Assembly (NCBI GenBank): GCA_963666115.2
Contig: CAXXET010000007.1
Location: 224,001-288,000 of the forward strand
DNA: 64,000 nt
Origin: Dehalococcoidia bacterium
Lineage (GTDB): Bacteria; Chloroflexota; Dehalococcoidia; UBA6926
Direction: 5' to 3'
The notes under the pieces were generated by a model that did not search any database, was not told where the DNA came from, and saw only the letters and a list, made by a program, of their open reading frames with translations. Numbering within the stretch: the stretch's first letter is position 1; each line of letters starts with the position of its first letter. This document shows, in pieces, positions 1-64,000 of the stretch. The position numbers and the translations under genes were made by a program.

Positions 1-1
1 C

Positions 2-250
2 CTGGAGTCGCTGAAGCGTCTGTTCGTCACGTTCGTGCGTGTGCGGCGAGAGAACGGCACGCTTGAAGAGTTCCTAAACGCGGCGGGCGTTGAATGGTAC
101 CCGGAATCCGAGTATCCCTCCAACAAGGGCGACGTGGAGTACCTTGCTGGGCCGCCTGCGCCCAGCATGGACGCACGGGGCCTTTATGCCACCCTGATGA
201 AGGGGAACTGGAAGGCCACCGATAAGCACGCCCTACCCTTGGCAGCATAG
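2..250 (+). CDS. 5'-truncated ORF, possibly HicB-family antitoxin C-terminal part
   Basis: Frame is open from base 2 (LESLKRLFVTFVRVRRENGTLEEFL...), resembling the HicB helix; directly abuts the next ORF. Confidence 0.35.
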   Translation: MESLKRLFVTFVRVRRENGTLEEFLNAAGVEWYPESEYPSNKGDVEYLAGPPAPSMDARGLYATLMKGNWKATDKHALPLAA

Positions 251-550
251 ATGGAAATCCCCAAGGACTACGTCATTGAGGCGTACCGTCGCCTTGGGTA
301 TTCTTTGCGCCCCGACTCTGACGACCGCACTCAGCTGATCTTTGACGATGGTCAGGGGATGATGTTCTTCCACCCGCTGCTTGAGGGCGGCTTGGTGGAA
401 CTACAATTCGCTCTCATGGACATTCAAACCACTGAGGGCATCATGGGCATGGAAGCTGGTTGGGCGCACGATACGTGGTTGCCAAGCTTAGCTGAGGTCT
501 TGAAAGGGACCGAATTCGAGTTGGACGAGGGCGGCTCCCCCGAAGACTAA
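251..550 (+). CDS. Small hypothetical protein, weakly HicA-like
   Basis: PKDYVIEAYRRLGY...QLIFDD...FFHP resembles the HicA pattern but lacks the GSH motif; TAG-ATG junction with the upstream ORF. Confidence 0.4.
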   Translation: MEIPKDYVIEAYRRLGYSLRPDSDDRTQLIFDDGQGMMFFHPLLEGGLVELQFALMDIQTTEGIMGMEAGWAHDTWLPSLAEVLKGTEFELDEGGSPED

Positions 551-6932: not shown

Positions 6933-7661
6933 TCACCCCACCTTTGGCCTGCCCTTGAACCTCAGCCGGGCCAGGCCCTTGATGTCTTCCCAGGCGGTGG
7001 AGACTATCTTGACGCGGGTGTCCGGGTCTTCTTCCCAGGCGACGGGAAAATCGGCGATGGGGTAGCTGTTCTTTTCGGCGATGAGCAGCAGTTCCGTATC
7101 GAAGAACCACGCGTTGTCCTTGATGAGGGGCAGGAGGTTGTCCGCTGCGCGGCGGCTGATGGCCTTGAAGCCGCACTGCGCGTCCGAGAACCCGCTCCAG
7201 AACACGGACTTGATCATCAGGTTGTAGGAGCGCGAGACGAACTCCCGCTTGAATGAGCGTGTGGTCTCTGCGCCGCGCTTGAGGCGGGAGCCGGTCGCGA
7301 CGTCATGGCCGTCCCTGACCGCGTCGAGCAAGTCCGGAATGCGGTTGATGTCAGTCGAGAGATCGACATCCATGTAGGCGCGGATATCGGCGTCGCTTTC
7401 GCCCCACGCCCGCTTGAGCGCCCTGCCGCGTCCCTTCTGCTCCAGGTGAACGACGCCCACTTCGCCCTCATACTGCGCTGACAAATCGTTCGCCACCTCA
7501 AGCGTGCCGTCGATGGAGCCGTTGTCCGCGATGACGACGCGCCAGTGATAGCCGGCCAGGTTCTCGCGGCAAAAGGGTAGCAGGCGCTCAAGGCAGACCG
7601 GCAGTGAGCGCTCCTCGTTGTAAACGGGGATAACAATGTCGGCGGAGAGGGTGTCCGTCAT
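6933..7661 (-). CDS. Family 2 glycosyltransferase (polyprenol-phosphate glycosyltransferase-like)
   Basis: IVIPVYNEE, ADNGSIDGT, YMDVDLS, DAQCGFKA, WFFDTELL. Confidence 0.92.
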   Translation of the reverse strand: MTDTLSADIVIPVYNEERSLPVCLERLLPFCRENLAGYHWRVVIADNGSIDGTLEVANDLSAQYEGEVGVVHLEQKGRGRALKRAWGESDADIRAYMDVDLSTDINRIPDLLDAVRDGHDVATGSRLKRGAETTRSFKREFVSRSYNLMIKSVFWSGFSDAQCGFKAISRRAADNLLPLIKDNAWFFDTELLLIAEKNSYPIADFPVAWEEDPDTRVKIVSTAWEDIKGLARLRFKGRPKVG

Positions 7662-7670
7662 GGCAGTATT

Positions 7671-9230
7671 CTAGTGGCGGAAGTGACGGACGCCGGTGAA
7701 CACCATGGCCGCGCCGGCGCTGTTGGCGGCGGCGATGACCTCATCGTCACGGACGGAGCCGCCGGGCTGCACCGCCGCCGTGACACCGCCCGCCAGCGCC
7801 ATCTCCAACCCGTCCGCGAACGGGAAGAAGGCATCCGACGCCACGACTCCGCCCTGCGCCTCGTCTCCGGCCAGTTTCAGGGCGAGTTCCACGCTGATGA
7901 GGCGATTCGGCTGCCCCGCGCCCATCCCACGCAGCGCGCCGTCCTTGACGATCACGATGGCGTTGGATTTGACGTGCCGCGCGGCTTTCCATGCGAAGCG
8001 TAAATCGGCAAGCTCCGCGTCCGTCGGCTCGCGCTCCGTGACCGTCCGCCACTCGCCCATTTCGCCCATGTCTGCGGCCTGCACGAGGAATCCGCCGCGC
8101 ACCGTGCGGATGTCCAAGGACGGCGTCGCGGCGGACGCGTCGTTCATCTCCAACAACCGCAGGTTGCGTTTCTGCGTGAGGACGGAAAGCGCGTCATCGT
8201 CGTAGGACGGGGCGATAACGATCTCATAGAATGCCTCGTTGATGGCCTCCGCAGTCGCCCTGTCCATCGGGCGGTTGGCGGCGATGATGCCGCCGAACGC
8301 GGAGACGGGGTCGCCCGCGAGGGCCCGCGTGAACGCGGTGACGAGCTCCGGCGCGGTGGCGAGGCCGCACGGGTTGCCGTGCTTGATGACGGCGACCGTT
8401 GGCGCGTCCGGAAAATCGCTCACGACGTTCCACGCGGCATCGGCGTCCAGGATGTTGTTGAAGGACATCTCACGGCCATGCACCTGGCGGGCGGAGGGGA
8501 TGCCCTGCGCGGGGCGGCCCGGATCGTTGATCGTATAGAGCGCGCCCGCCTGGTGGGGATTCTCACCATACCGCAGCGACTGAATGGATTGGAGGGGGAG
8601 GACGCGCTCAGCGGGGAGCGCGGCGGCCTCATCGTCCATGCCCGCTGCGCCCATGTCACGCCCAAGATAGCCGGCGATCACAGTGTCATAGGCGGAGACG
8701 TGCTCAAACGCCTTTCGGGCGAGGCGCCGGCGCTCGGCAACGGGCACGACGCCTGCGCGGAGCATCTCCAGAACGGGCGCATAGTCCGCAGGATCGATCA
8801 TCACGATCACAGCCGGAAAATTCTTGGCGGCGGCGCGGACCATCGTGGGGCCGCCGATGTCAATCTGCTCCAGCGCGTCCATGAGAGTCACGTCCGGCCT
8901 GGAAACGGTCTCCGCGAATGGGTAGAGGTTCACGGCAATGAGGTCGATTGTGCCGATGCCGTGCTTTTCCATCTGCGCCACGTGGTCCGGCTCCTCGCGC
9001 TTGGCGAGGATGCCGCCGTGGACGCGGGGATGGAGGGTCTTGACGCGGCCATCGAGTATCTCGGGGAAGCCGGTTAGGTCCTCGATGTGCTTGGCTTCGA
9101 CGCCCGCGCCGGTCAGGAAGCGGTGCGTGCCACCTGTCGCATAGACCTCCCAGCCGAGGCCGGTCAGCCCGTGCGCGAGTGTGTCCGCGCCGTCCTTGTT
9201 GGACGGGGCGATGATTGCCCGAAAAGTCAT
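7671..9230 (-). CDS. purH: Bifunctional AICAR transformylase/IMP cyclohydrolase
   Basis: GRVKTLHP, IDIGGP, LRYGENPHQ, KHGNPCG, SDAFFPF, RHFRH. Confidence 0.98.
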   Translation of the reverse strand: MTFRAIIAPSNKDGADTLAHGLTGLGWEVYATGGTHRFLTGAGVEAKHIEDLTGFPEILDGRVKTLHPRVHGGILAKREEPDHVAQMEKHGIGTIDLIAVNLYPFAETVSRPDVTLMDALEQIDIGGPTMVRAAAKNFPAVIVMIDPADYAPVLEMLRAGVVPVAERRRLARKAFEHVSAYDTVIAGYLGRDMGAAGMDDEAAALPAERVLPLQSIQSLRYGENPHQAGALYTINDPGRPAQGIPSARQVHGREMSFNNILDADAAWNVVSDFPDAPTVAVIKHGNPCGLATAPELVTAFTRALAGDPVSAFGGIIAANRPMDRATAEAINEAFYEIVIAPSYDDDALSVLTQKRNLRLLEMNDASAATPSLDIRTVRGGFLVQAADMGEMGEWRTVTEREPTDAELADLRFAWKAARHVKSNAIVIVKDGALRGMGAGQPNRLISVELALKLAGDEAQGGVVASDAFFPFADGLEMALAGGVTAAVQPGGSVRDDEVIAAANSAGAAMVFTGVRHFRH

Positions 9231-49549: not shown

Positions 49550-52500
49550 CTACTGGATGCGGTGCCAGCCGCTCCAACTGCCCCAGATTAGGTTGAATGC
49601 CCTTACGCGGAAGTAGTTGCCGTTGTTGGAGTAGTGGTTGCAGTGCTGGTTGCCGCCCACGTACTTGCTCGTGGTGGTGGACTCGCCCGCGTCGCTAACT
49701 GCTATGGCCCGCTTGCACTGCACGTTGTACTTGGTGATGCCGGTTTGGCCGTTGCCGGTATTGGAGGGCGCGGTCCAGTGGACGTTATTCTTGTCTCCGC
49801 CCAAGCCCGTCGCCGTGCCCGGGGCGGCGAGGGCCGGGAGGGATGACGACTGCACCCAGGCGCTGTTGTTGCCGGTGCCGTAGACGGCCCGGATGCGGAT
49901 TATGTAGGAGTTGCCTTTGTGCAGGCCCGTGATCGTGCGGCTTGTGGCCGTGGCGGCTATCGCCGTGCTGTCGGAGGTCCAGTTTGTGCCGCTGTCCGTG
50001 CTGTACGCCGTCTCATAGGCAGTGATGCCCGTTCCGTCCGGCGCAGTCCACGAGAGCTCGACGCTGTCGCTGTTGTCCGATCCGCTGTACGTCCGCGTCG
50101 CGGTGAAGCTCGTCGGCGCGGGCGCGGTCTTGAACGAGGTGGCCAGTCCGAGCGCGGTGGAGCAGGCGGAATCGCTGTACGCGGTGTAGGTATACGTCGT
50201 GTTCGCGGTCAGCCCCGTCAGCGTCGCGGTGGACGTTCCCGCGCTCACCACCGACGAGCAGGACGTGTGCGGGCCGGTGGTGGCCTTGTAGCGCCAGGCC
50301 GCCGGGTGCCGGATGATGGTCAGCGTCGCGCCCGTGCCGGAGATGTTGGACACGCTCAGCGCGGGCCGCTGTTCGGCGGCAGGCAGGTAGTCGCCGTACT
50401 CCAGGATCGGATACTGGTTCGCCGTGCCGAAGTCCCAGGGGTCATCGTTGCCCGTCACGTCGTCCACGTTCACGTTCCAGGTCGCGTAGATGCCGGTGTA
50501 GCCCGTCGGCGTCTGGAGCTCCGAGGTGGTCTTGGCCGTGCCCGCAGGGCTGCTGGACTTGCCGGAGGTGGTGGTGTCCCAGTAGCTGGTCGTAACCGTG
50601 CTGCTGCCCTCGTTTGTGCCGACCAGACCGCCCCTGTTCTTGTTCGCGCCGCTGCTAGATCCGACGGTGCCGGTGGAGTAACTGGCGGTGATGGTTCCGT
50701 TGTTGTTTCTGCCAACCAGGCCGCCGTCCCATGCGCGGGTTGCATTGGAGCTGACGTTGCCCGTTGCGTAGGAGGCGATGATAGTACCGCCGTTGTTGAT
50801 TGCCACCAGCCCGCCGGCGCGGCTATTGCCGAGGGCCTGGTTGGTAACGCTGGTCTCGGCGCGCACGCTGCCGGAGGCGTAGCTCGCGGCTATGGTTCCC
50901 TTGTTCACTGCGACCAGCCCGGCGGCGCGCGCGTCGCCGTTGGCCGAAACACCCCGGCTGGTAACGGCTGCGGTGGAGTAGCTGGCGCCGATGGTGCCCT
51001 CGTACGCGGTGGCGCCGGAGCCGCCCTTGTCGTTCACACCAACCAGTCCGCCCACCTGGATCCAGGTGGTCGAGGACGTCCGCTGCGAACTTCCCGTCAC
51101 GCTGCCGCTGGACCAGACGCCGATGATGGCTCCCCGGTTGTCCGCCGCGAGAGCGCCGGCGAAAATCTCATCCTCCAGCGTGCTGCTGACGGTGACGGAC
51201 ACGTTCTCCAGGCCGAGGTTAATGACCGCGCCGCCGCTGCCGATGCCCGCGAAGAGCCCGCCGACGTCGGGCGTGGCGTCCTCGGCGGTGGTGCTGGCAT
51301 TTATGTGGAGGTTGGAGAGGGTGAAGCCGCCGCCATCGAAGGTTGCGGTGAAGACGTTGGAGGTATCGCCGATGGGCGTCCAGCCCGCGCCGCTGTTCCA
51401 GTACGTGTCGCCGGAGTCCGCCGTGCCGCTGCCATTGGTATCGAAGTCCAGGTTGGCGGTGAGTTCATAGCCCGTGCACGCGGACGGAGTGGACTCATCG
51501 TCGTTGCAGCCCATGTTGGACTTGGCGTCGGGGAAGGCCGTGGCGTAGGTGGTCGTGTTGCCGCCGGAGGCCGTGCCGTTGCCGTCCAGGTCCCAGCGCA
51601 TGGCGTTCAACTGCGCCAGGCTGCCGACCTCAATCAGCCCGTCGTCGTCCGCGTCGAAGTCGGTGACGGCCAGGAACGACGACGCCGTGGCGAGCAGGTT
51701 CGTATCGGCGCACCCGCTCGCGCTGTAGGCCTTATAGGTGTAGGTGGTGTTGGCGGTCAGGCCGGTCACGGACTCGGTTGACGTGCCGGAGGCGACGGGG
51801 CCCTGGCAGGTGGAGTCTGGCCCGGTATTGGCCTTGTACCACCACTGCCCTGTGTGTCCTGTGATGGTGAGCGTCGCGCTCGTCGCGGTGACGTCGGAGA
51901 CCGTGAGTGTCGCGGCCGTCGTGAACGTCGCCGTGCCCAGCAGGTTGGCGGTCGTGCAGGCGGAATCGCTGTACGCCTTGTAGGTATAGGCCGTGCCGGG
52001 CGAGAGTCCGGTCAGTGTCTCGGTGGTCGCGCTGACCGCGCTCGAGCATGAGGTGTCCGGCCCTGTGTCGGCCTGGTAGTGCCAGTTGCCCGTGTGTCCG
52101 GCAAGGTTGAGGGTCGCGCCGGTGGCGGTGACGCCGGACGCGGTGAGGGCGGCGTCGGTGGTGAAGGCCGCCGCGGCGGCCAGGGCGGTGACGCAGGAGG
52201 AGTCCTTGTAGACGGTGTAGGTGTAGGACGTGCCGGGCGTCAGTCCCGTCAGCGTTTCGGTCGTACCGCTGACCGCGCTCGAGCACGTGGTGTGTGGCGC
52301 GGCATTGGCCTTGTAGTGCCAACTCCCGGTGTGGCCGGAGATGGTGAGGGTCGCGCCGGTGGCGGTGACGCTGCCGGATGTGAGCGTGCGCGCGCTGGGA
52401 ATGCCGAAGGCGGAAGCGGACCACTGACCGTCGCCGCGCGCGTTCTTGGCGCGGACCTGCACCTCGTATTCGGTGTTGTTGGTGAGGCCGCTGAGGGTGT

Positions 52501-55500
52501 AGCTGGTGGCGGTGGTGGCGAGGTCGATGGCCACGTCCATGCTGCGCGTGGAGAAGTGCTGCGAGCGGTCAGGCGTGACCCAGAAGTAGTGGCCGGCGGT
52601 AATAGAGCCGTAGAACGCGTACGGGAAGTCAAAGCGTTTGTTTGCCCCAGACGTGTTTGTGAGGCTGGCCAGCTGCGTGCCGGCGGTGTGGATGTTGCTG
52701 GACGGCTTTGTGCTGTGCGTCCGCAGGCTGACGATGGTGTCGCCGCCCAGGTTGACCGTGTAGGCGGCGACGTGTATCCGCGCCTCGTCGATGGCGCTGC
52801 TGCCGAACTTGTAGAAGCCGTTGCTCTCATTGGTGAGGGGGGAGACGGTTCCGAAGTTGATCGGGTCGCCGCCCGGCCCGTTGCCCAACTCGGAAGTGAA
52901 GGAGCTTCGAATGCCGGAACTCCCGCCGTCGTAGATTCGCACCCAGCTTGACGAAGTGGTCTGGCGGTAGCGCACGTCGTAGTCCGTGATGGCGGAGCCG
53001 TTGATCGCGGGTGCCGTCCAGGAGATGGCGAGCTGCTGGCTGCTGGGAGTGAGTGTGACGACGGGCTGCTGCGGCGCGCCCGCCGTGCCTGTCGCCGTTG
53101 CGGACCATGCGCCGTCGCCATGGGTGTTGGTGGCGAGCACCTGGAAATCGTAGCTCGTATTGAGGGTGAGACTGGCGACGGCGGTCTGTCTCGTCGTGCC
53201 ATCCGAGGTGAACGTATGCGTGGACCACGTTGAACTCGACGAGGCCTTGTACCGGACCTTGAAGCCGGTGATCGACGCGCCGCCGTTGTACGGGGCCGTC
53301 CATTGCACGGTGATCTGGTTCGTGCTGAGCAGGAGCGTGGGGGTGTCGGGCGCGTTGGGGAGGCCGGCGTTGGTCGCGAGTGAGGCTGCGGGCGACCACC
53401 CGCCCTCGCCTGCCGCGCTCTTCGCCCGCACGCGCGCCTCGTAGGTGGCGGCGCCTTCGAGGCCTGTGATGGTGGCGGTGACGGCTGTGCCGGTGTGCGC
53501 CCACTCAGACCAGCCGGTCGCCCCGGACTTGCGGTACTGCACGTCATAGTCCGTGATGGCAGAGCCGTTGGGGGTTGGGGCGGTCCACGTGACGGTCAAC
53601 TGCCGCGTCCCGGCGGTGAGGGTGGGCGCGGTCATGGCGGGCGGGCGTCCGGGCTTGTCCGTTGTGGATGCGGACCACGGCCCGGTCGCGCTTGAGTTCG
53701 TGGCGCGCACCCGCACGCGGTATGCGGTGTTGTTGGTGAGGCCGGTGATGGTTGCAGTGCGCGTGGCGAACGTGATGCTGACGTTTGCGGACGACCACGT
53801 CGTGCCGTCGGTGGAGTACTCCACGCCGTAGGAGGTGATGGCGCGTCCGTTGTCCGCAGGCGCAGTCCACGTGGCGGTCAGCGTGGCATTGCCGGAGGCG
53901 AGAGTTGGGGCGGCAGGCGCGTCTGGGCGTCCGGGTTTGACGGATGCGGAGGACGGCGACCAGAGGCCGTCGCCGTGGGTGTTCGTGGCGCGCACCTGCG
54001 CCACATACGCCGTGTGGTTGGTGAGACCAGTGATGGTTGTCGAAGTCGTCGTGCTCGTGTTGGACGGGTTGAACTCGGTCCAGGTGACGCCGGCGTCTGA
54101 CGAGTAGCGGATGTCATAGTCGGAGATGGCCGAGCCGTTGCCGGAGGTGGCAGCCCAACTCGCGGCCAGATCACCGTCGCCGGACACGAGCGTGGGGGCG
54201 GCGGAGACGGCGGGGAGCCCGGCCTTGAGCGTGCCGGAGGGGGACCACGCGCCGCGTCCAATGGCGCTGAAGGCGCGCACCTGGACGTTGTAGCTCGTGC
54301 CGTTGGTCAGGCCGGTGATGGTGAGGGAGCGAGACGCGGCGGACGCGTCGATCTCGGCGTCAACGCGCGGGAAGAAGCTGTCGGTGCTGCCGCTGCTCGT
54401 GGTCGTGATCCAGAAGTGGGTGTTGGCGGGGAGGACGCCCGTCCAGGCATCGCCGGTGATAGAGGCGGCCTCGCTAGCCGTCTGCTCCCACAGGAGCGTG
54501 CCGTGGGTGTTCATGTTGCTTGTCGTTGGCGCGGTCGAAGCGTAGCGCGCCCGGTACGTGAGAGCGCCTTGGCCAGCGTTATTGGCATTCCGCGCGTCCA
54601 GCTTCAGGCGCAATCGATAGACGGGCTCGGCGATCTTGTAGACGTTGGAGATGCCGCCCGTGCTGACCTTTGAAATGGTCAGGCCGGAGAGGCTGACGCT
54701 GCCCAGGTCAAACGCGCTGCCCGCTGAGCCGTCGCTGGTCTTGATTCCGACAAGCTGGCCGGGGTTGTAGCTGGGGAACAGCGCGGGCGGGACGCTCCAC
54801 CCGGAGGCGCTGGCGGCCTGGTATCGGACGTTGTAGCCGGTAATCGCTGAGCCCCCGTCCGCCGGGGCCGTCCACGCCACGCCAAGCTGTGCGTTGCCGG
54901 TGGTGAGCGCCGGGGCTGCCGGGGCGACGGGGACGAGCTGCGGACTTGCGGAGGCTGAGGAGGGCGACCAGAGGCCGTCGCCGTGGGTGTTTCCGGCGCG
55001 CACCTGCACGATGTAGGCGGTTCCGTTGTCGAGCCCGGTGATGGACGCGGTGGTGTCGGTGGACGTAGTGTCCGTCACCACCGTCCACGTTGCGCCGCTG
55101 TCTGAGGAGTAGCGCAGGTCGTAGTCGGTTATGGCGGAGCCGTTGCCGGAGGGCGGGGTCCAGGAGACCGTGATCTGCTGATTGCCAGCGGCGAGGGTGG
55201 GCGCGGCGGGCCGGGCGGGCAAGCCGGGCTTCAGGGTGACGGGGTCAGACCACTCGCCGTCGCCGACGGAGTTGCCTGCGCGCACGGAGACCTGGTAGGC
55301 CGTGCCGTTGGTGAGGCCGGTGATGGTGTACGCGGTGGCGGTGGAGGCCAGGTCCATGTGGTATATGGCGTGGAAGCGAGTGGCATACGTCGACGAGCCG
55401 GTGGTGGGAGACGCCCAGAAGTAGCCGTTCGCAGCGATGGGGCCAACCCATTCCCGGAACTTGTTCGTTGGCGTCGTCGTCGCTGAGGATGCCAGGACTG

Positions 55501-57307
55501 TGCCCGTGTTGAGGGCAGAGGGCTTGGAATTCGCCGTCCGCATGGTGAAGTTGGCGCCGTTGTTGGCCTGCAGGTAAATCTCCATCTCGTCGATGGCGCT
55601 GGAAACCTTGTAGAGGCCCTGGTGGCTGCCCAGCGACTCGCGGGTTATCCCCGCGCCGATGTTGCCGAAGTCGATCGGGTCCGTGCTGCTGGCGGTGTCG
55701 CTGCCGCCAGCGGGGGTCGTTCCGACGGTGCCGCCGTCAGAGACGCGCGTCCAGTCGGTTGTTCCGACCTGACGGTAGCGGAGATCGTAGTCGTTGATGG
55801 CGGAACCTCCGTTAGACGGAGCGGTCCACTGCGCCGCAAGCTGCGCGTTGCCGGTAGTGAGGGCGGGGGCTGCCGGGGCGGCGGGCGCGGTAGGCCCGGT
55901 CGTGGTGAAGGACGTCCCCGCCAGTTCCGTCGAGCACGACGAGTCGTGGTAGGCGCTGTAGGAGTAGGAGGTGTTGTTAGAGAGGCTCCCAAAGGTGTGC
56001 GTCGCGCCGCTGATGGCGGATGAGCACGTTCCGGCGGGGGCGGGCGCAGTCTTCTTCACGTGCCAGGCGCCGCTGTGCCCGGCGAGGGTCAGGGTCGCCT
56101 CGGCTCCGGTGATGCTGCCGGCAGTGAGCCAGCCGGGGACGGGCGCGTTGCGCCACTGGCTTGTCGCGCCGCCGTTGGTGGCCTGGACGGCGACGGTGGC
56201 TGCGGCGGTTGAGGTGACGGTATGGGTGTGGGTGGTTGTCGAATGGTCGGTGGCGATGCGCTGCCACTGGCCGCCGTCCGCGCGGTAGTTGACGTTGTAG
56301 GCGTTAGCACCCTGGCCGGCGTTCCACGTTGTGGTGACTGTGCCGCCGTCCGTGCCGTGCGTGGTGGAGGTGACGGCACGGAGGCCGGAGACCGCGCAGA
56401 CGGACGGCGGCGGGACGGTGGCGGAGTTGGTCCAACCGCTTTCACCGGCAGCGTTGCGGGCGCGGACGGCCAGGGTGTAGGTCTTGTTCTTGCTCCACTT
56501 GGCGAAGTTCCAGGACGTGTACGTCACGTTGCTAAGGGCGCGCTTCCAGGTCTTGCGCTTGTTGGTGCTGACGTTCACGTCGTAGCCGGTTGCGCCGGAC
56601 ACGGGCGTCCAACTGACCGACATCGCTTCACAGGCGCGGCTGAGAGAGACGTTGGCGGGCGCGGACGGTGGCGGATCGGCAGGAACCCAGGGGGCGCTCG
56701 CCGGGGAGTTGCGCCAGTTGCCCCACAGCGTGTTGCCGCCGTCGGTCTTCCCTGCGCGGACGCCGACGACGTAGGGATACTGGTTATCGACGTTGATGGT
56801 GATGCTGGTGGACGAGTGGGCAAAGGCGGCAAGGCTCCAACTCTTCTTGCCGTCCGAACTGTAGGTGACGTGGTACTTGTCCGCGCCAACGACGGCGGGC
56901 CAGGAGGCGGTTATCGAGCCGTCGCTGCGGCTGATCAAGACATAGCTGACGCGAGCGGGCGGGCCGCTGGGATTGTTGGAGGCGGAGTTCCGCCACTGGC
57001 CCCAGCCGTGCTCGTTGCCAGCGCGGACGCCGACGACGTAGGCCTTCGACGTGTCGATGCCGGTGATGTCGATGGATGTTGTGGCGTGGTCGTAGGCGGC
57101 GAGGCTCCAGCTCTTCTTGTTGTCGGAGCTATAGGTGACGTGGTACTTGGTGGCGCCGGCAGGGGCGTCCCACGATGCGGTGAGGGTCGTGTTGGCGCGG
57201 GTGACGGTGACGCTCGCCACCTGGCCGGGGGCTGATTGGGCGACGGCGGGCGAGGCGGCCACTGCCATGGCTGCCACGAGGATAGCCAGAGCGATAATGC
57301 TACGCAT
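49550..57307 (-). CDS. Giant secreted FN3-repeat protein (2585 aa) with two-Cys repeats and a GLUG-type beta-helix region
   Basis: Signal peptide (AVA-Q), many FN3 repeats (W..P...Y.V.VRA.N..G.G.WS), ~80-aa two-Cys repeats, [10 protein letters not shown]...GGLVG.N region; no anchor. Confidence 0.9.
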
Positions 57308-60300
57308 CCGTTTCCTCCGTGGTCGTGGCCCGGCGCGCGCGCCTGCGGCGGCGCAGAATGATGAACAGGATCAGGGCGAGGAGCAGCAGGCCCGCGCCGG
57401 CGATCACGAAAGGCGCGTAGTCACTCGCGGCTATATCGTCCACCACGTCAGGCAGCGAGACGGCGGTCGCCACGGGAACGGCCGTCGCGGACTCGTCCAC
57501 GGGCGCCGGCATGACGACGAGCGCGTAGACACTGAAGCGCGTGAGCACGGAGACCGTCCAGGAATTGCCTGAGCCGTCGACGGCGCAATCGTGCCGCACG
57601 CGCCCCCATCCCTCCGCCTCCACGCGGTACACCCGGGCGCGGTTGTCCGTGCAGGCGGACTGGTCGTTCTCCGGCAGCTTGAACCACAACTCCACGCCCT
57701 TCAGCCACGTGGTCGGCGCGAGAATATCCGTCCCCGCGATATACGTGTTCACCTCGACCGCCAGGTTGACGAGATTATCCGCAACAGGCGCCTCGCTCTC
57801 GAGGGAGCCGGTGTCCAGCGTCCACATCCGGACTTCAAGGAGTTCCGGCGCGGCCCCCGCCGGGATGATCAGCCGCGCCCGGCCGTCCGGCGTCTCGATC
57901 ACCGTCGCGCTGTCCGGCCACACAAGGTCTCCTCCCTCGGACACCTCAGGCAGCGGCGTGGGCGTTGGCGTGGGCGTCGGCGACGGTCCCGGCGTGGGCA
58001 ACGGCAGAGGTGTTGGCGTGGGCGTCGGCTCCGGCGGCGGCTCCGGTGTTGGGGTGGGCGTCGGAAGCGGTGTCGGCTCCGGCTCGGGCTCCGGCGTGGC
58101 TGCGGGCGGCGGTGCAGGCGTCGGCGCAGGCGTCGGCGTTGCCTGCGCGGCAGGCGCGGCGGTGGGCGGAGGCGGCAGGACCCTGATCCTCACGACGTCC
58201 GTGGCGTAGCGGCCCGCCTCGACGTGTATGCCCACGGTCTGGACACGCAGCTCGAAGTGCAGCACGATGGCGTTTTCCACCGTCGGCGCGAGGAACGTGG
58301 CCGTCAGGGACGACGCGTTGTTGATGGTGACGGTGGCGGGCGGGTTGTCCCCGGTCTGCGTCCACGTGTATTCCAGCGACAGGCCGGGCTTCGTGTCGAC
58401 GCCCGGATAGTTGGCCTGGCCTGACAGCCTCACCGTGTCGCCGCTGTACTCGGACCGGTTGTTGCCCGCATCGACGAAGGGGCGCGGGTTGACGACGACC
58501 CGATTGATGGCGATGCCGTGGTAGCCGGGGTCATGGCTGTACGCGGTGTGGGCCATGATGACTTCGCCGTGAGAGCCGTCGCGGTTCCGTCCCGCCGTCA
58601 CGGTGACGGTCTGCGCCGTATCCCAGTTGCTGGGCGTGAACGTGAGCGTCGCCGGACTGACCGTGATGTCCGGATCGCCCGTCTTCACGACCCTGACAAC
58701 CACGTCGCTCTCCGGCGCATGCGTTGCCAGGACGACCGTATACGTGGTCGACTCGCCCTCTTCGAGATTGTCGATGCTCGACTTGGAGACGACAGTGCCG
58801 CGCGTCCTGACCATGGCCGGCCCCGCCGCCGTGCTCTCGCCCGCGGCGTTGACGGCGCGGAGTTGGAAGGCATAAGTGGACAGCGGATCGAGGCCGGTGA
58901 GCGTGAAGCCGCGCGCGCCTGAACCGCCGGAGATCGTCGTCCACGTCGCGGACGCAAAGTCGAAGCTGTCGCAGTCGGTCGCGTCGCATCCTGTCCCCTT
59001 GGCCTGCAGGTACTCCCACCGGCTGATGACGGAGTCCGCCGGAACCGGATCATCCCACGTGAACCTGGCCATGCCCCACTTGGGCAGCGTGAACGCGAAG
59101 TTCCTGGGCGCGGCGGGCCTGATGAGGGCGGTGTTGTCCGTCGTCAACTGGTTCAGCGTCGGCTCGCCGTTCCCTGCCGCGTTCACCGCCCGCAGTTGGA
59201 AGCTGTAGGACATGCCCTTCTTGAGGCCGGTCACCGTGTAGCTGGTGCGGACGAAGACGGCCCGCACCTGGAAGTCATAGGTCGTGCCGGACGTGAGATT
59301 GTCCACCTGGTGGCTCGTCTTGTCGACGCACGTGCTGTCGTCGGCGGCTGTGCAGATGTCCACCCACGCGCCGTACTCGGTCGCCGTGCTCTCCTTCATC
59401 CGGTACTGCCACTTGAGGAAATGGGTGGTGTCGGCGGGCGTGCTCCACGTCAGCGTGACGCTGCTGCTGGCCGTCGCGCTGCCGTCAAACGCGGACGTGC
59501 CGACGGTGGATGACACGTTCTTCCAACCCGTGTTCGTGGGAGGCGTGGCCGTCGCCTCGTCCAGCGCCGGATGAACCACCGGGCGAATCTCAAAGTCGCA
59601 GAACGCGCCCGCGGGCGAGCACGTCGCCGTGTACGACGTCGTCGTATCGCCGCTGTTCGATATATCCGTCCAGCCGAACGGGTCGGTCGCCGGCCAGTCA
59701 TCCGCCGCCGCCTTCGTCCGGTACTGGTACTTGACGATGGTGTTGTCCTTCGGATCAGTCCACGAGAGCGTCTCCTCGTGGTTGGTGTCGGAGAACGTCG
59801 TGAAGTTCCACGTCTTGTACACGACGAGCGGGAGGACATAGCTCAGCCCGTCCTGGATCACCGGCGCAACCTGGAAAACGTAGTCCGTATCGACGGTCAG
59901 GCCGGTCGCGGTGTAGGACGTGGTGGTCGCGCTGCTGCCGGCGATGTCCGTCCACGCGCCAAAGCTCCCCGTCCCCGACTTCTGCCGGTACTGCCACTTG
60001 ATGATCCGGGCGTTCTGCGGGTCGCTCCACGCCAGCGCGATCTGGTTGGCGCTGCCGATGTTGGCCAGGCTCCAGCTGCCCACCGCGTCGAGCGTGACCT
60101 GCATCGCATCGTTCGGCTTGAACGCGCGCGCCTGGAAGGTGTACTCCGTGTTGTTGGTCAGGCCCGTCACCCGGTACTGCGTGGTGGTTGCCGTGCTGTC
60201 CGGGATGTCCGTCCAGCTTCCGTAGGCGCCCGTGCTCTTCTGCCGGTACTGCCACTTGGTGATCGCGCTGTCATTGGGATCGGCCCACTTCAGGAGAACC

Positions 60301-63300
60301 GCCTTGTCCTCGGCGAGGGCGACCAGGCTGCCCTCCATCGTCCGGTACTGGTAGGTCGTGATGGACGGGTCGTTCGGGTTATTCCACGTCAGCGTGGCAT
60401 TGCTGATGTCCACCACCACGTTGGCCGTGAACTGGTCGGGCATCTCCGGTATCAGGACGATCTCCACCGCGTCAGACGGCACGCCTCCGTCCACGGCGCT
60501 GCTCGCCACGTTCGCCGCGCGCACCTGGAAGCGGTACACGTCATTGGCCAGGCTCGTCCTGACGTACGACCTGGTATCGCCGTCGCTGCTGGGAACAGCC
60601 CGCCACTCCGCCGCGTTCAGCATGGTCGTCCATTCCGTCTCCGTCGTGTCCGTGTCGCCGCTCGCGGCGCGCCAGTCCCATGACGTGATGGACGGATCCG
60701 CCGGGGATGGCGGCGCCCACGTGAGCGTCACGTTGAAGTCGTTTGTGCGCGCCACGTACGTATCGCTGAGGGTCAGGCTGGCGGGCTTGCCCGGCGTGAG
60801 CGTGACGGTGGCGGTGGCGGACGCCGCGCCCTTGCCGGACGAGTTGACCGCGCGCACCTGGAACTGGTAGCCGCCGGGGCCGGTGACGCCGAAGGGGATG
60901 GTGTAGCTGCGGGTGTTGTTCTTGCTGCCGGGGATGGCCGTCCAACCGGCGCTGTTGAGGTCCTGACGCTCGGAGGTCGCGCGGTACTCCCAACTCAGGA
61001 TGGAGGAGTCGGCAGGCGAAACCGTCCAGGCGACCGAGACCTGGAAGTTGTTGGTGGCCTGGAGGTACGCCTTGCTGGCGGTCAGCGTTGCGGGCGCGGC
61101 AGGCTTCGCGGGCAGCGAACTCGTCGCGGTGGCCGACGCGGGGCTGATGCCGGCCGGGTTCACCGACCGGATCTGGAACTTGTACGCGGTGTCGTCGCTC
61201 AGGCCGGTTGCCTCATACGACGTGGCGGACGCGCTCGCGCTGATGGTCGTCCACGCCTTCACGCCCGACGCCGTGTGGTTGGCGCCGGGTCTTCACGCCC
61301 TCAACCTGGTAGGTGAACGACGCGCCGCTGGTCAGATTCTTTGTGAATGTATGCGAGTTGAGCGTTCCGACGGCGCAGGGCGACGCGCAGGTGATATTCG
61401 TCCACGCGGAGCCGTCCGTGCTGTACCGCCAGCCGGTGATGCCGCTGTCATTGGGATTCGTCCACTCCAGCGTGATCTCCTGCGTGGCGACGCCCTTGCC
61501 GACGATGAAGTCCGCATTGCTGCCCGTCCAATGCCGCATCTGCCACTTGGTGATGGACGGGTAGTTCGGGCTTGTCCAGGAGAGCGTCGCCTTCTGCTGC
61601 CCCGCCGCCGAGCTCAGTCCCTTCGGTTGGAGAGGCGTGGTGGCGGTGGAGGCGACGTCCGAGCCCGGCCCATACACGTTGTTGGAGTTCTTGGCGCGCA
61701 CCCGGAACGAGTATGTCGTGCCGGTGTTCAGCCCAGACGTAATGCTGTGCGAGTTGGTGTTGGCGCCGCTGTTGGAAATGGGCCGTCCAATTGCCCCAGT
61801 TGCCGCTGCCCTTCCTCTGGCGGAACTCCCAACCCGTGATGTTGTTGCCGGTGGTCGGTATTGCCGTCCACGACAGGCTGACGTTCGTGCCGGTTGCGGT
61901 GGCGGTTAGGTCCTGAGGCTGCGGCGGGACGGCTCTCGGCGTCTGCGACACGCTATCAGTCGCAACGCCGGTTCCCGTCCCGTTGACGGCGCGAATTTGG
62001 AAGTTGTACGGCGTGTTGTTGGTGAGCTGCGTCACCGTGTACGAGGTCGTGGTCGCCTTGCTGTTCGAAATGGTAGACCAGTTCGATCCGCCATCCTTGC
62101 TGTACTGGTAGCCGGTGATGGATGAGTCGTCCGGGTCGTCCCACGTGAGAACCACCCGCCGGTCTCCCGGCTCGGCCGTCAGGCCCGTCGGCTTGGCCGG
62201 ATACAGCGTGGGCGAGGACGCGTCCGATGCCGCGCCGTTCCCCGTCGCGTTGACCGCCCGGATTTGGAACGTGTACGCCGTGCCGTTGTCGAGGCTGCTT
62301 ACCGTGTAGGTGGTGGTGGACGCGCTCGTGCTCATTTGCGTCCAACTGCCGTAGGTGCCCGTGGTCTTCTTCCGGTACTGCCACTTGGTGATGCTGGAGT
62401 TGTCCGGGTTGTCCCAGCCAAGCGTCGCCTGCCCGTTGCCGCCCGTTGCCGTGAAGTTGGTGGGCTTGGCCGGATACTGGACGAACTTGGACGACGTGGC
62501 GGCATCGCCGACGCCATTCGGCCTGGCGTTGTTCACCGCGCGCAGCTGCGCCTTGTACGACTTCCCGTTGGCGACAGATGTGATGGTGTGAGTCGTGCTG
62601 TTATGGTTGCTGCCGGAAATACTCTTCCAGCCCTCGCTCGTCGATGGCGTGGTCGTCACGGTGTCCAGCGCCGACCCGGCGCCGGTCGTATAGGGCCGCA
62701 CCTCGAATTGGTGCGACGCGCCGTTCGTCAGGCTCGTCACCGTGTGGGTCGTCGTGGTCGCGCTGCTGCTGGAAATGTCCGCCCACGATTCCCAATTCTC
62801 CGTGCCCTCCTTGTAGCGGTACTGCCACTTGGTGATGTTGGAATTGTTGGGATCGGTCCAGTTCAGCACAACCTGCGCGTTGCCCGGCACGGCCTCCAGT
62901 CCGCCCTCGCCGGCCTCCCAGTAGCGGTACTGGTAGCGGTAGCCGGTGGTGCTGGTGTCGGTGGTCTTCGTCCAACGGAGCGTCGCCTGGCCGTCGCCGC
63001 CCGTTGCCGTGAGGCCGGACGGCGTGGACGGCCGGGCCAGCGGAATGACCGTGGCCGTATCGGAAATGGGGCTGGCACCCGCGTCGTTCTTTGACCGAAC
63101 CTGGAACGTGTACGTCGTGTTGTTGGTCAGGGAACCGACAGTGTGCGTCGTGTAGCCGGGCGTCTGCTCGGTGTTGACGGTAACCCAGTCGCCGTAGCTG
63201 CCGCCGGACTTGTAGCGGTACTCCCAGCTATGGAAGTACTTGTGGCCGGTGTTGAACCAGCGGAGGAGCGCGCTCCCGTCACGCGAGGTCGCGTTCAATT

Positions 63301-64000
63301 GCGTCGGCTTGTTGGGCGCGCTCGCCACCGGAACGGCAGTCGCGGAGTCCGACGCCGGGCCCGCGCCGCTGACGTTCACCGCGCGAATCTGGAACCGTAC
63401 CTTGGAGCTGTTGTCCAGCCCCGTCACCGTGTGGCTCGTTGTGGTCGCGCTGCTGGCGATCGCCCGCCACTGGCCCCACGATGCCGACGGATGCCCATAG
63501 CGCAGCTCGTAGCGGGCAATCGAGGCGTTGTTCGGGTTCGTCCACGACAGGCTAACCTGCGTGTTGCCGCCCGTCGCCGTCAGTCCGGTTGGCTTGCCCG
63601 GCAGCGCGCGCGGCGTCGCCGACTTCGCATCGGACTGCGTGCCGTTGCCGGTGCCGTTCACCGCGCGAATCCTGAACGTGTACTCCGTGTCGTTGGTGAG
63701 GCTGCCAATGGTGTACGTCGTGGTGGACGCGCCGCTGCTCGGTATCGTCGTCCAGTTGCCCGTGTCCTGCTTGTACTCCCAGCTCGTAATCGAGGAGTTG
63801 TTCGGATTCGTCCACGTCAGCTTCACCTTTTGGACGTTCGGCGTCGCCCTGAAGCCCGTCGGCTTGGCGGGCGCGGCCACCGGGGTCGCCGTCTTCGCAT
63901 CGGACGACGCGCCGTTGCCGCTGATATTCACGGCGCGGAGCCTGAACGTATACGTCGTGTTGTTCGTGAGGCTCGGGACGGTGTACGTCCTGGTGGTCGA
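57300..64000 (-). CDS. Giant membrane-anchored FN3-repeat protein, 5'-truncated by the window and interrupted by two +1 frameshifts
   Basis: ORFs 61448-63931, 61213-61701 and 57300-61262 join into continuous FN3 repeats if one extra C is removed at 61780-82 and at 61287-89; C-terminal Calx/PKD-like domains, Pro-Thr linker, TM helix, poly-Arg. Confidence 0.85.
57950..58175 (-). repeat. Pro-Thr/Pro-Glu low-complexity linker coding repeat
   Basis: [31 protein letters not shown]... Confidence 0.85.

Follow-up and report, generated by a model that had tools for sequence, protein, structure and literature searches.

FN3 domains nested in the loops of other FN3 domains in a giant, apparently membrane-tethered protein of a Dehalococcoidia bacterium

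Introduction

In titin, fibronectin, the contactins and most bacterial proteins that contain them, domains of the fibronectin type III (FN3) family are arranged as linear arrays without nesting. The two ends of the canonical FN3 domain lie at opposite poles. A domain inserted in another one is described as normally needing termini that are close together (PMC2490766). Domain insertion is common, and both the two-level nesting of immunoglobulin (Ig)-like domains (in RrgA) and FN3 domains with a large insert (in the insulin and IGF-1 receptors) are already known. Here we describe a giant FN3 gene, the 3' part of which occupies positions 57300..64000 on the minus strand of a 64,000-nucleotide stretch of a Dehalococcoidia bacterium genome (assembly GCA_963666115.2, contig CAXXET010000007.1, positions 224,001 to 288,000; hereafter the window) and which extends upstream to about position 313,096 of contig C7 (window-equivalent about 89,096). 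In its product, whole FN3 domains (guests) sit in loops of other FN3 domains (hosts). In our judgement, the region is likely to code for a section of a branched stalk of FN3 domains, which belongs to one giant secreted protein with a C-terminal membrane anchor.

In RrgA, the innermost guest is of the vWA type, its ends being adjacent, and the hosts are of the CnaB type. In this pilus tip adhesin of Streptococcus pneumoniae, domain D3 is described as inserted in D2, and D2/D3 in D1 (PMC5333627). RrgA is comparable to the giant protein as a bacterial surface protein in which Ig-like domains are nested two levels deep. It differs in that its hosts are described as isopeptide-stabilised, in having one nest per protein and in carrying a cell-wall sorting signal, whereas in the giant protein guest and host share the same fold, eight nests occur per chain, orthologues differ in their cargo and the C-terminus has a membrane helix but no LPXTG motif. 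In the insulin and IGF-1 receptors, the insert of domain FnIII-2 lies in the C-C' loop. It is described as a nonglobular insertion of about 110 amino acids in Fn2 (PMC4381924). These receptors share with the giant protein an FN3 domain broken by a long insertion, but theirs is a non-globular, eukaryotic insert, while the inserts considered here are FN3 domains, nested units or propellers. Finally, in the engineered proteins GL5/I27 and barnase-ubiquitin, the host is described as shielding the guest or competing with it (PMC5133956). These constructs likewise have an Ig-like domain inserted in a loop of another domain; however, they are artificial, combine different folds and were designed for conflict, whereas the nests described here are natural, conserved and predicted to co-fold.

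The first-pass annotation of the window, made from the sequence alone, had not recognised this architecture as a described one. Nested Ig-like domains as such are known from RrgA, and literature searches for natural FN3-in-FN3 or FG-GAP-in-FN3 arrangements, whose coverage did not extend to subscription journals, returned none. The combination that we did not find described comprises FN3 domains within FN3 domains, many of them per chain, a conserved two-level version, a guest devoid of its G strand and exchangeable cargo at one loop.

Eight interrupted FN3 domains in one chain

To parse the giant protein, a hidden Markov model (HMM) of 95 positions trained on 20 of its uninterrupted FN3 domains was used. 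The parse splits each of three nests in the window, named A, B and C, into an N-half, one or more full-length guests and a C-half, and agrees with the initial reading of the minus-strand translation, in which three hosts stop after strand C, give way to guests at these places and then resume. In nest A, the host N-half (strands A, B and C; 62903..63031, minus strand as for all features of the gene) corresponds to strands E5-11, E15-21 and E30-37 of the AlphaFold2 model discussed below. It is followed by a complete guest with strands A-G in the host C-C' loop (62642..62902; Pfam fn3, 34.9 bits) and by the host C-half with strands C', E, F and G (62474..62641), which is delimited by the HMM parse and by structure superposition. 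Nest B consists of an N-half (61492..61635), a type-B guest with a CxxxC loop (61269..61491), which holds a spurious extra base near 61287, and a C-half (61104..61268), both halves being defined by the parse. The host of nest C is in three pieces. Its N-half (60327..60449) precedes three serial guests in the C-C' loop (60066-60326, 59799-60065 and 59532-59798), which are found by the HMM parse and by Pfam fn3 in four stretches. Then come the host C' strand fragment TGWKNVSST (59505..59531), a fourth guest without G strand in the host C'-E loop (59256..59504), whose F strand (..DFQVRAV) continues directly into the host E strand, and the E-F-G part of the host (59118..59255; HMM parse).

In total, the giant protein contains eight host and 13 complete guest FN3 domains, five of the hosts lying outside the window. 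The cut site is the C-C' loop except in one host, which is cut in the C'-E loop, and in another, which is cut in both, and N-half and C-half elements are bracket-balanced in all eight nests. The nests beyond the window include a three-guest nest, a two-guest nest, a C'-E loop nest and a two-level nest. The latter, located just outside the window (p1 7853-8131), has the order N-half, N-half, guest, C-half, C-half.

Sequence evidence that the host pieces belong together

A scan with an fn3 HMM before and after deletion of the guests in silico had been named in the first-pass annotation as a check of the nesting. With the guests deleted, all eight hosts become a single full-length FN3 match (positions 1-84..94 of our HMM, 62-100 bits, the training domains scoring 76-125). 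The host bit scores come from this HMM only; Pfam was run on unjoined sequences, in which PF00041 (gathering score 25 bits) gives 134.6 bits for P0001, 200.9 bits for P0002 and, for nest A, the 34.9 bits on the guest. The short GWKNVSS stretch of nest C, initially read as a host fragment, also behaves as one, inclusion of TGWKNVSST lifting the joined host from 50.1 to 65.8 bits. For each of the eight joined hosts, the top database match is an uninterrupted FN3 domain aligned across the junction (55-103 bits), and the core residues W20, W58, W83, W135 and R164 are invariant in 16 aligned nests.

Natural counterparts of the guest-less host exist as well. The related proteins P0039, P0042 and P0080 align collinearly with the giant protein over its C-terminal part. 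Where the latter two relatives contain a nest, P0039 has an intact FN3 domain (residues 1098-1200), the guest amounting to an indel of about 85 amino acids. This intact domain is 63% identical to the host of P0080 and 60% identical to that of P0042. Such comparisons bear on the possibility that the array is an ordinary head-to-tail one, in which the host halves are decayed half-domains produced by out-of-register recombination and now form unfolded linkers. Recombination of this kind in repeat genes can leave partial repeats, the host halves show lower mean pairwise identity (32% and 38%) than the guests (44%), and unpaired hits do occur inside database proteins (35 N and 58 C). However, all FN3 core residues are retained in the halves, which always occur as matched N...C pairs, score as full FN3 domains when joined, are 60-76% identical to uninterrupted orthologues and are assembled by AlphaFold2 into a canonical FN3 domain. 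We regard decay as an improbable explanation.

All four pieces of a simple nest are FN3 halves, and an HMM alone cannot discriminate the pairing of host N-half with host C-half from a swapped one, in which the host N-half would pair with the guest C-half and the guest N-half with the host C-half to give two intertwined FN3 domains. Uninterrupted orthologues nevertheless match host N-half plus host C-half and not mixed pairs: the N-part of the intact P0039 domain is 76% identical to the host N-half versus 48% to the guest, and its C-part 68% identical to the host C-half versus 52% to the guest. Correlations of pairwise identities also favour the unmixed pairs (0.43 for host N with host C and 0.51 for guest N with guest C, versus 0.25-0.36 for mixed pairs), and in the AlphaFold2 model the contiguous segment 43..131 fits one FN3 domain and 1..186 the other. 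Swapping is, in our view, very unlikely indeed.

Predicted structures and topology

An AlphaFold2 model of nest A was built from an alignment of 16 rows, with nests from 15 different proteins. It has a predicted local distance difference test score (pLDDT) of 92.1 and a predicted TM-score of 0.72, with no residue below a pLDDT of 50. In a comparison with 48,161 solved chains, single solved FN3 domains fit the host on residues 1..186 of the model (84-95 residues aligned, Z 12-12.7). Among them are 6tpw_A (Z 12.7, root-mean-square deviation (rmsd) 1.5 Å, 87 residues aligned) and 4n68_A, a chain of 99 amino acids (Z 12.5, rmsd 1.9 Å, 92 aligned). Because the halves alone, with 43 and 56 residues, are too short for 84-95 aligned residues, the fit on 1..186 represents the joined host. 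Other solved FN3 domains fit the guest on residues 43..131 (Z 11.1-11.4; the best with rmsd 2.0 Å over 82 residues). For the double nest, modelled from a 6-row alignment with a pLDDT of 78.5, single FN3 domains fit the outer host on 1..278 (Z 12.2, 95 aligned) and the inner host on 52..222 (Z 9.7-10.4, 82-86 aligned, rmsd 1.5-2.1 Å). Over all rebuilt hosts, the rmsd of single FN3 domains ranges from 1.5 to 2.2 Å. Structure prediction, the other check named at the outset, therefore rebuilds the hosts of nest A and of the double nest from their separated halves. The overall arrangement itself has no solved counterpart in these comparisons: Foldseek found no solved chain that shares it (best TMq 0.36-0.41), and among the best 60 of 82 matches of a nest profile to PDB sequences none spans host, guest and host. 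A discontinuous host around a contiguous guest is supported by sequence, by the natural guest-less orthologues and by structure prediction, and the separated host pieces, whether two or three, are predicted to form one canonical FN3 sandwich.

The spacing between host and guest is narrowly constrained. Host Y33 is separated from guest W20 by a median of 24 residues (interquartile range 22-25), and guest R73 from host W44 by either 17 residues (in 13 of 45 nests) or 23-27. In the C-C' loop, guests retain all strands from A to G, with a conserved glycine hinge on either side (GG|L before, G|W after). Guests in the C'-E loop are devoid of the G strand (p1 7494-7664, the fourth guest of nest C, P0014 2092-2270 and P0037 382-562), and their F strand reaches the host E strand within 2-4 residues. 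Loss of the G strand would place both chain ends of such a guest at its N-terminal pole. In one C'-E loop nest (p1 7494-7667, L024:1822-2343) an E-strand-like motif flanks the guest on both sides, 'KLTTHLNAYKT' before it and 'VTTLTSHIVTGL' after it, a pair that may be a duplication from the insertion event.

Distant FN3 ends joined by short linkers could also mean that the folding of host and guest is mutually exclusive, so that the nest would act as a switch toggling, for example, under force. The principle has been described for the engineered GL5/I27 and barnase-ubiquitin proteins (PMC5133956), inserts are said normally to need close termini (PMC2490766), and slack is small in type-B nests, in line with the 17 residues between guest R73 and host W44 in part of the nests. 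On the other hand, AlphaFold2 folds host and guest of nest A together, with pLDDT values of 86-97 that include the junctions, and the type-B inner nest is co-folded with both hosts in the model of the double nest. Although a prediction cannot gauge strain or equilibrium, the confident co-folded model indicates that the co-folded state is geometrically possible. Moreover, loss of the G strand in C'-E loop guests would bring their ends to one pole, and evolution therefore appears to remove the folding conflict rather than to use it. A folding switch seems to us an unlikely function for these nests.

Conservation and variable cargo in relatives

A search for the same nesting in related organisms had likewise been proposed at first pass, and homologous nests were indeed found in 23 related metagenomic proteins. 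Of 211 related proteins, these 23 contain 52 nests, the remainder being plain tandem arrays, and the homologous nests sit on at least 23 other, independent metagenomic contigs. As a control, the same HMM parse was applied to the best 150 FN3 matches in a library of 1.84 billion proteins, of which 135 are plain arrays and 15 contain nests. Since 135 of 150 control proteins parse without nests, the pattern is not an artefact of the method or due to chance. Most of the 52 nests hold one guest (47), four hold two and one holds three. The host N-half ends at HMM position 35-40 in 39 of 52 nests and the C-half starts at 36-43 in 44 of 52, which corresponds to the C-C' loop.

The two-level nest recurs in P0014 (55% identity over 276 residues). 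Domains of its outer-host lineage have no insert in P0157, P0023 and P0037; the cargo is a type-A guest in P0039 and the nested unit in the source protein and P0014. One orthologous host position is empty, occupied by a type-A guest or occupied by a type-B guest, depending on the relative, and one orthologous nest holds two guests in the source protein versus one in P0149. Nearest neighbours in the tree are guest-guest in 40 of 54 cases and host-host in 39 of 46, counts of a kind that kinship inflates. On these sequence comparisons, guests and hosts are distinct FN3 lineages, and each nest is inherited as a unit, with conservation extending to other organisms.

The cargo is of another kind in G022, G264 and G131, which belong to other genera or families of the class. 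Among the loci examined, inserts of 378-426 amino acids interrupt 12 of their FN3 domains at the C-C' loop, for example in the regions L017:4035-5582 (G022), L038:7456-8913 (G264) and L042:6041-7546 (G131). The four inserts that were scanned are arrays of FG-GAP_2 repeats (Pfam, E 1e-76 to 1e-108), with seven repeats in L017:4140-5423 (E 1e-98), L038:7558-8757 and L042:6155-7411 and six in L038:3847-5064. Hosts bearing FG-GAP show no special kinship to those bearing FN3 domains, the propeller insert is absent from the window's gene, and a PDB sequence search with the FN3-propeller unit returned nothing beyond FN3.

Integrity of the assembly

In principle, nests could be mimicked if a metagenome-derived assembly had joined diverged FN3 repeats into chimeras, and the gene is highly repetitive and has three homopolymer frameshifts. 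The earlier caveat that the segments need frameshift correction was right. A spurious extra C lies in a CCC run of the coding strand at 61780 (minus strand), inside an ordinary FN3 domain, where contigs of X1 and X6 are one base shorter, that of X6 (979 nucleotides) showing no other difference from the window. A second extra C is found in a CCC run at about 61287, in the guest of nest B, where an X3 contig is one base shorter. Because the contigs of other runs do not have the extra bases, both window frameshifts are to be ascribed to errors in this assembly, and the gene forms a single frame. The third break, again of a single base in a homopolymer, is located near the N-terminus of the giant protein (C7 about 312640), and similar errors may exist in other genes of this genome.

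Contigs from runs X1, X2, X3 and X6, which come from three studies, span all junctions of nests A, B and C with at least 31 nucleotides on both sides, and several of these contigs are 2-6% different from the window. DNA repeats in the region are merely 60-88% identical, and homologous nests occur on the other contigs mentioned above. Short of a systematic error common to all the assemblies, we give the artefact explanation next to no credence. Joints and loose ends in contigs of other runs were considered as alternative arrangements and set aside for their short sides and low likeness.

Among the differences listed, strain X1 departs from the window by 12 synonymous versus three non-synonymous codons outside one divergent patch. 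Within this patch (window 61424-61473, in guest B), substitutions are dense and accompanied by a compensating pair of indels, and nine of ten changed codons are non-synonymous, which sets it apart from the remaining contig. The patch resembles a gene-conversion tract with another repeat as its donor.

A probable branched stalk at the cell surface

The encoded product of the giant gene has about 10,600 amino acids when the frameshifts are read through, and 9,124 codons of open frame lie upstream of the first break of the window on the whole-genome contigs. Farther upstream, in a different frame, a signal-peptide-like start (..RVRRTNLLVVAAVALLLLAASPSFA..) is found. The N-terminal 5,800 residues consist of about eight repeats of about 660 amino acids, each with one FN3 domain and a weak GLUG match, and the remainder is an FN3 array; the majority of the FN3 domains are arranged head-to-tail. 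Near the C-terminus, a Pro/Thr-rich spacer (PTPTPEP...; 57945..58175) may cross the cell envelope, and a membrane helix followed by RRRRRARR (57342..57410) precedes the stop codon (57300-57302), all on the minus strand. At the DNA level, 57954-58138 within the spacer consists of short imperfect tandem repeats with periods of 12-48, ahead of the C-terminal domain and the membrane helix. No LPXTG motif was found in the C-terminal part upstream of the helix. Judged from these features, the giant protein is probably secreted and tethered to the membrane by its C-terminus. The first-pass annotation had proposed a branched or looped surface fibre; the location at the surface gains support because of the signal-peptide-like N-terminus and the C-terminal membrane helix, while the geometry of the branches is deduced from the nesting.

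In the fibre that we propose, the load-bearing axis would run through the hosts, entering at strand A and leaving at strand G. Guests would leave the C-terminal pole of their host as side loops when single, as hairpins when there are two and as closed loops when there are three, and would provide extra surface for binding, or lateral struts, at unchanged axis length. By analogy with the engineered host-guest constructs (PMC5133956), the host might keep tension from them for as long as it stays folded. The C-C' loop would be a permissive port, since cargo varies at orthologous hosts and propellers occur at the same loop in relatives, and cargo could be gained, lost and exchanged through recombination among repeats. 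The broader proposal that this loop is a general port for single FN3 domains, FN3 chains, nested units and 7-bladed FG-GAP propellers, exchanged between repeats and strains as in a natural cassette system, is tentative. At the surface of the cell, the fibre would most likely act in adhesion or spacing, perhaps with a sponge as host, and a role in attachment to a host matrix is plausible. The window sequence occurs in marine and sponge metagenome runs, and some weaker named homologues come from Candidatus Poriferisocius (Acidimicrobiia). Sponge-associated Actinobacteriota are described as enriched in fn3 genes (PMC11706023).

Several observations weigh against the branched stalk. Few sequences underlie the structural models (alignments of 16 and 6 rows), pLDDT is below 60 for two of the five models of the double nest, and the innermost guest of that nest (residues 94-164) was not matched on its own among the 50 matches listed. 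The estimated slack of the linkers amounts to only about eight residues (N side) and 0-9 residues (C side), and type-B nests look tight. In addition, all nested homologues are single-member metagenomic clusters, and no match spanning the whole nest was found in 40 relatives by protein search or in 300 genomes of the class by profile search. Partial matches in G162, G264, G246, G194 and G131 are plain arrays or propeller inserts and not FN3-in-FN3, and a single-protein search of the genome contigs gave one irrelevant match of 20 residues only.

Genomic setting and other interrupted FN3 domains

The source genome has 2.07 Mb in nine contigs and a high GC content. It contains 25 stop-to-stop open reading frames (ORFs) with FN3 matches, whose listed lengths sum to about 40,000 codons, about 6% of the 2.07 Mb. 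In this survey of 25 FN3 ORFs, FN3-in-FN3 nests are confined to one gene. Across the region, Pfam found no family in plus-strand ORFs, neither Rfam families nor tRNAs were found, and a terminator scan gave no signal above shuffled sequences.

Interruptions of a different type were also observed. In three more FN3 hosts (L024:6829-7365, L024:3478-4014 and p1 7217-7392; outside the window) a non-FN3 insert follows the C' strand. Each insert comprises one or two modules that carry the motif 'LTFT..NW...QTV.V', which is also present in the C-terminal region at about window 58200-58760, and no Pfam family was matched at E <= 0.1. The neighbouring gene (49550-57307, minus strand), which overlaps the stop of the giant gene by eight bases, encodes a secreted FN3 protein of 2,585 amino acids with 13 fn3 stretches. 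Three of its FN3 domains are broken after strand C' by inserts of about 125 amino acids, for which no Pfam match was found and a PDB sequence search returned nothing beyond FN3. The same protein has a GLUG-like region and repeated two-cysteine modules of about 65 amino acids ('GH.G.WHYK...C...C').

Conclusion

Textbooks present FN3 and Ig-like arrays as 'beads on a string'. In this protein, FN3 domains, whose two ends lie at opposite poles, are repeatedly placed within domains of their own kind, at up to two levels of nesting, and the arrangement has been kept in evolution. The nests offer a natural case in which to study the folding of such a topology during secretion, and they parallel in nature the engineered host-guest proteins with which mechanical hierarchy is studied. 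Annotation that assumes contiguous domains mis-describes these giant proteins. In monobody engineering, the C-C' loop of FN3 may serve as a permissive insertion site. The differences in cargo between orthologues point to a route of surface variation in marine or sponge-associated bacteria. If the C-C' loop is indeed a cargo port, it would yield a combinatorial branched fibre with shielded side branches, an adhesin that could be varied at constant length and strength of its stalk.

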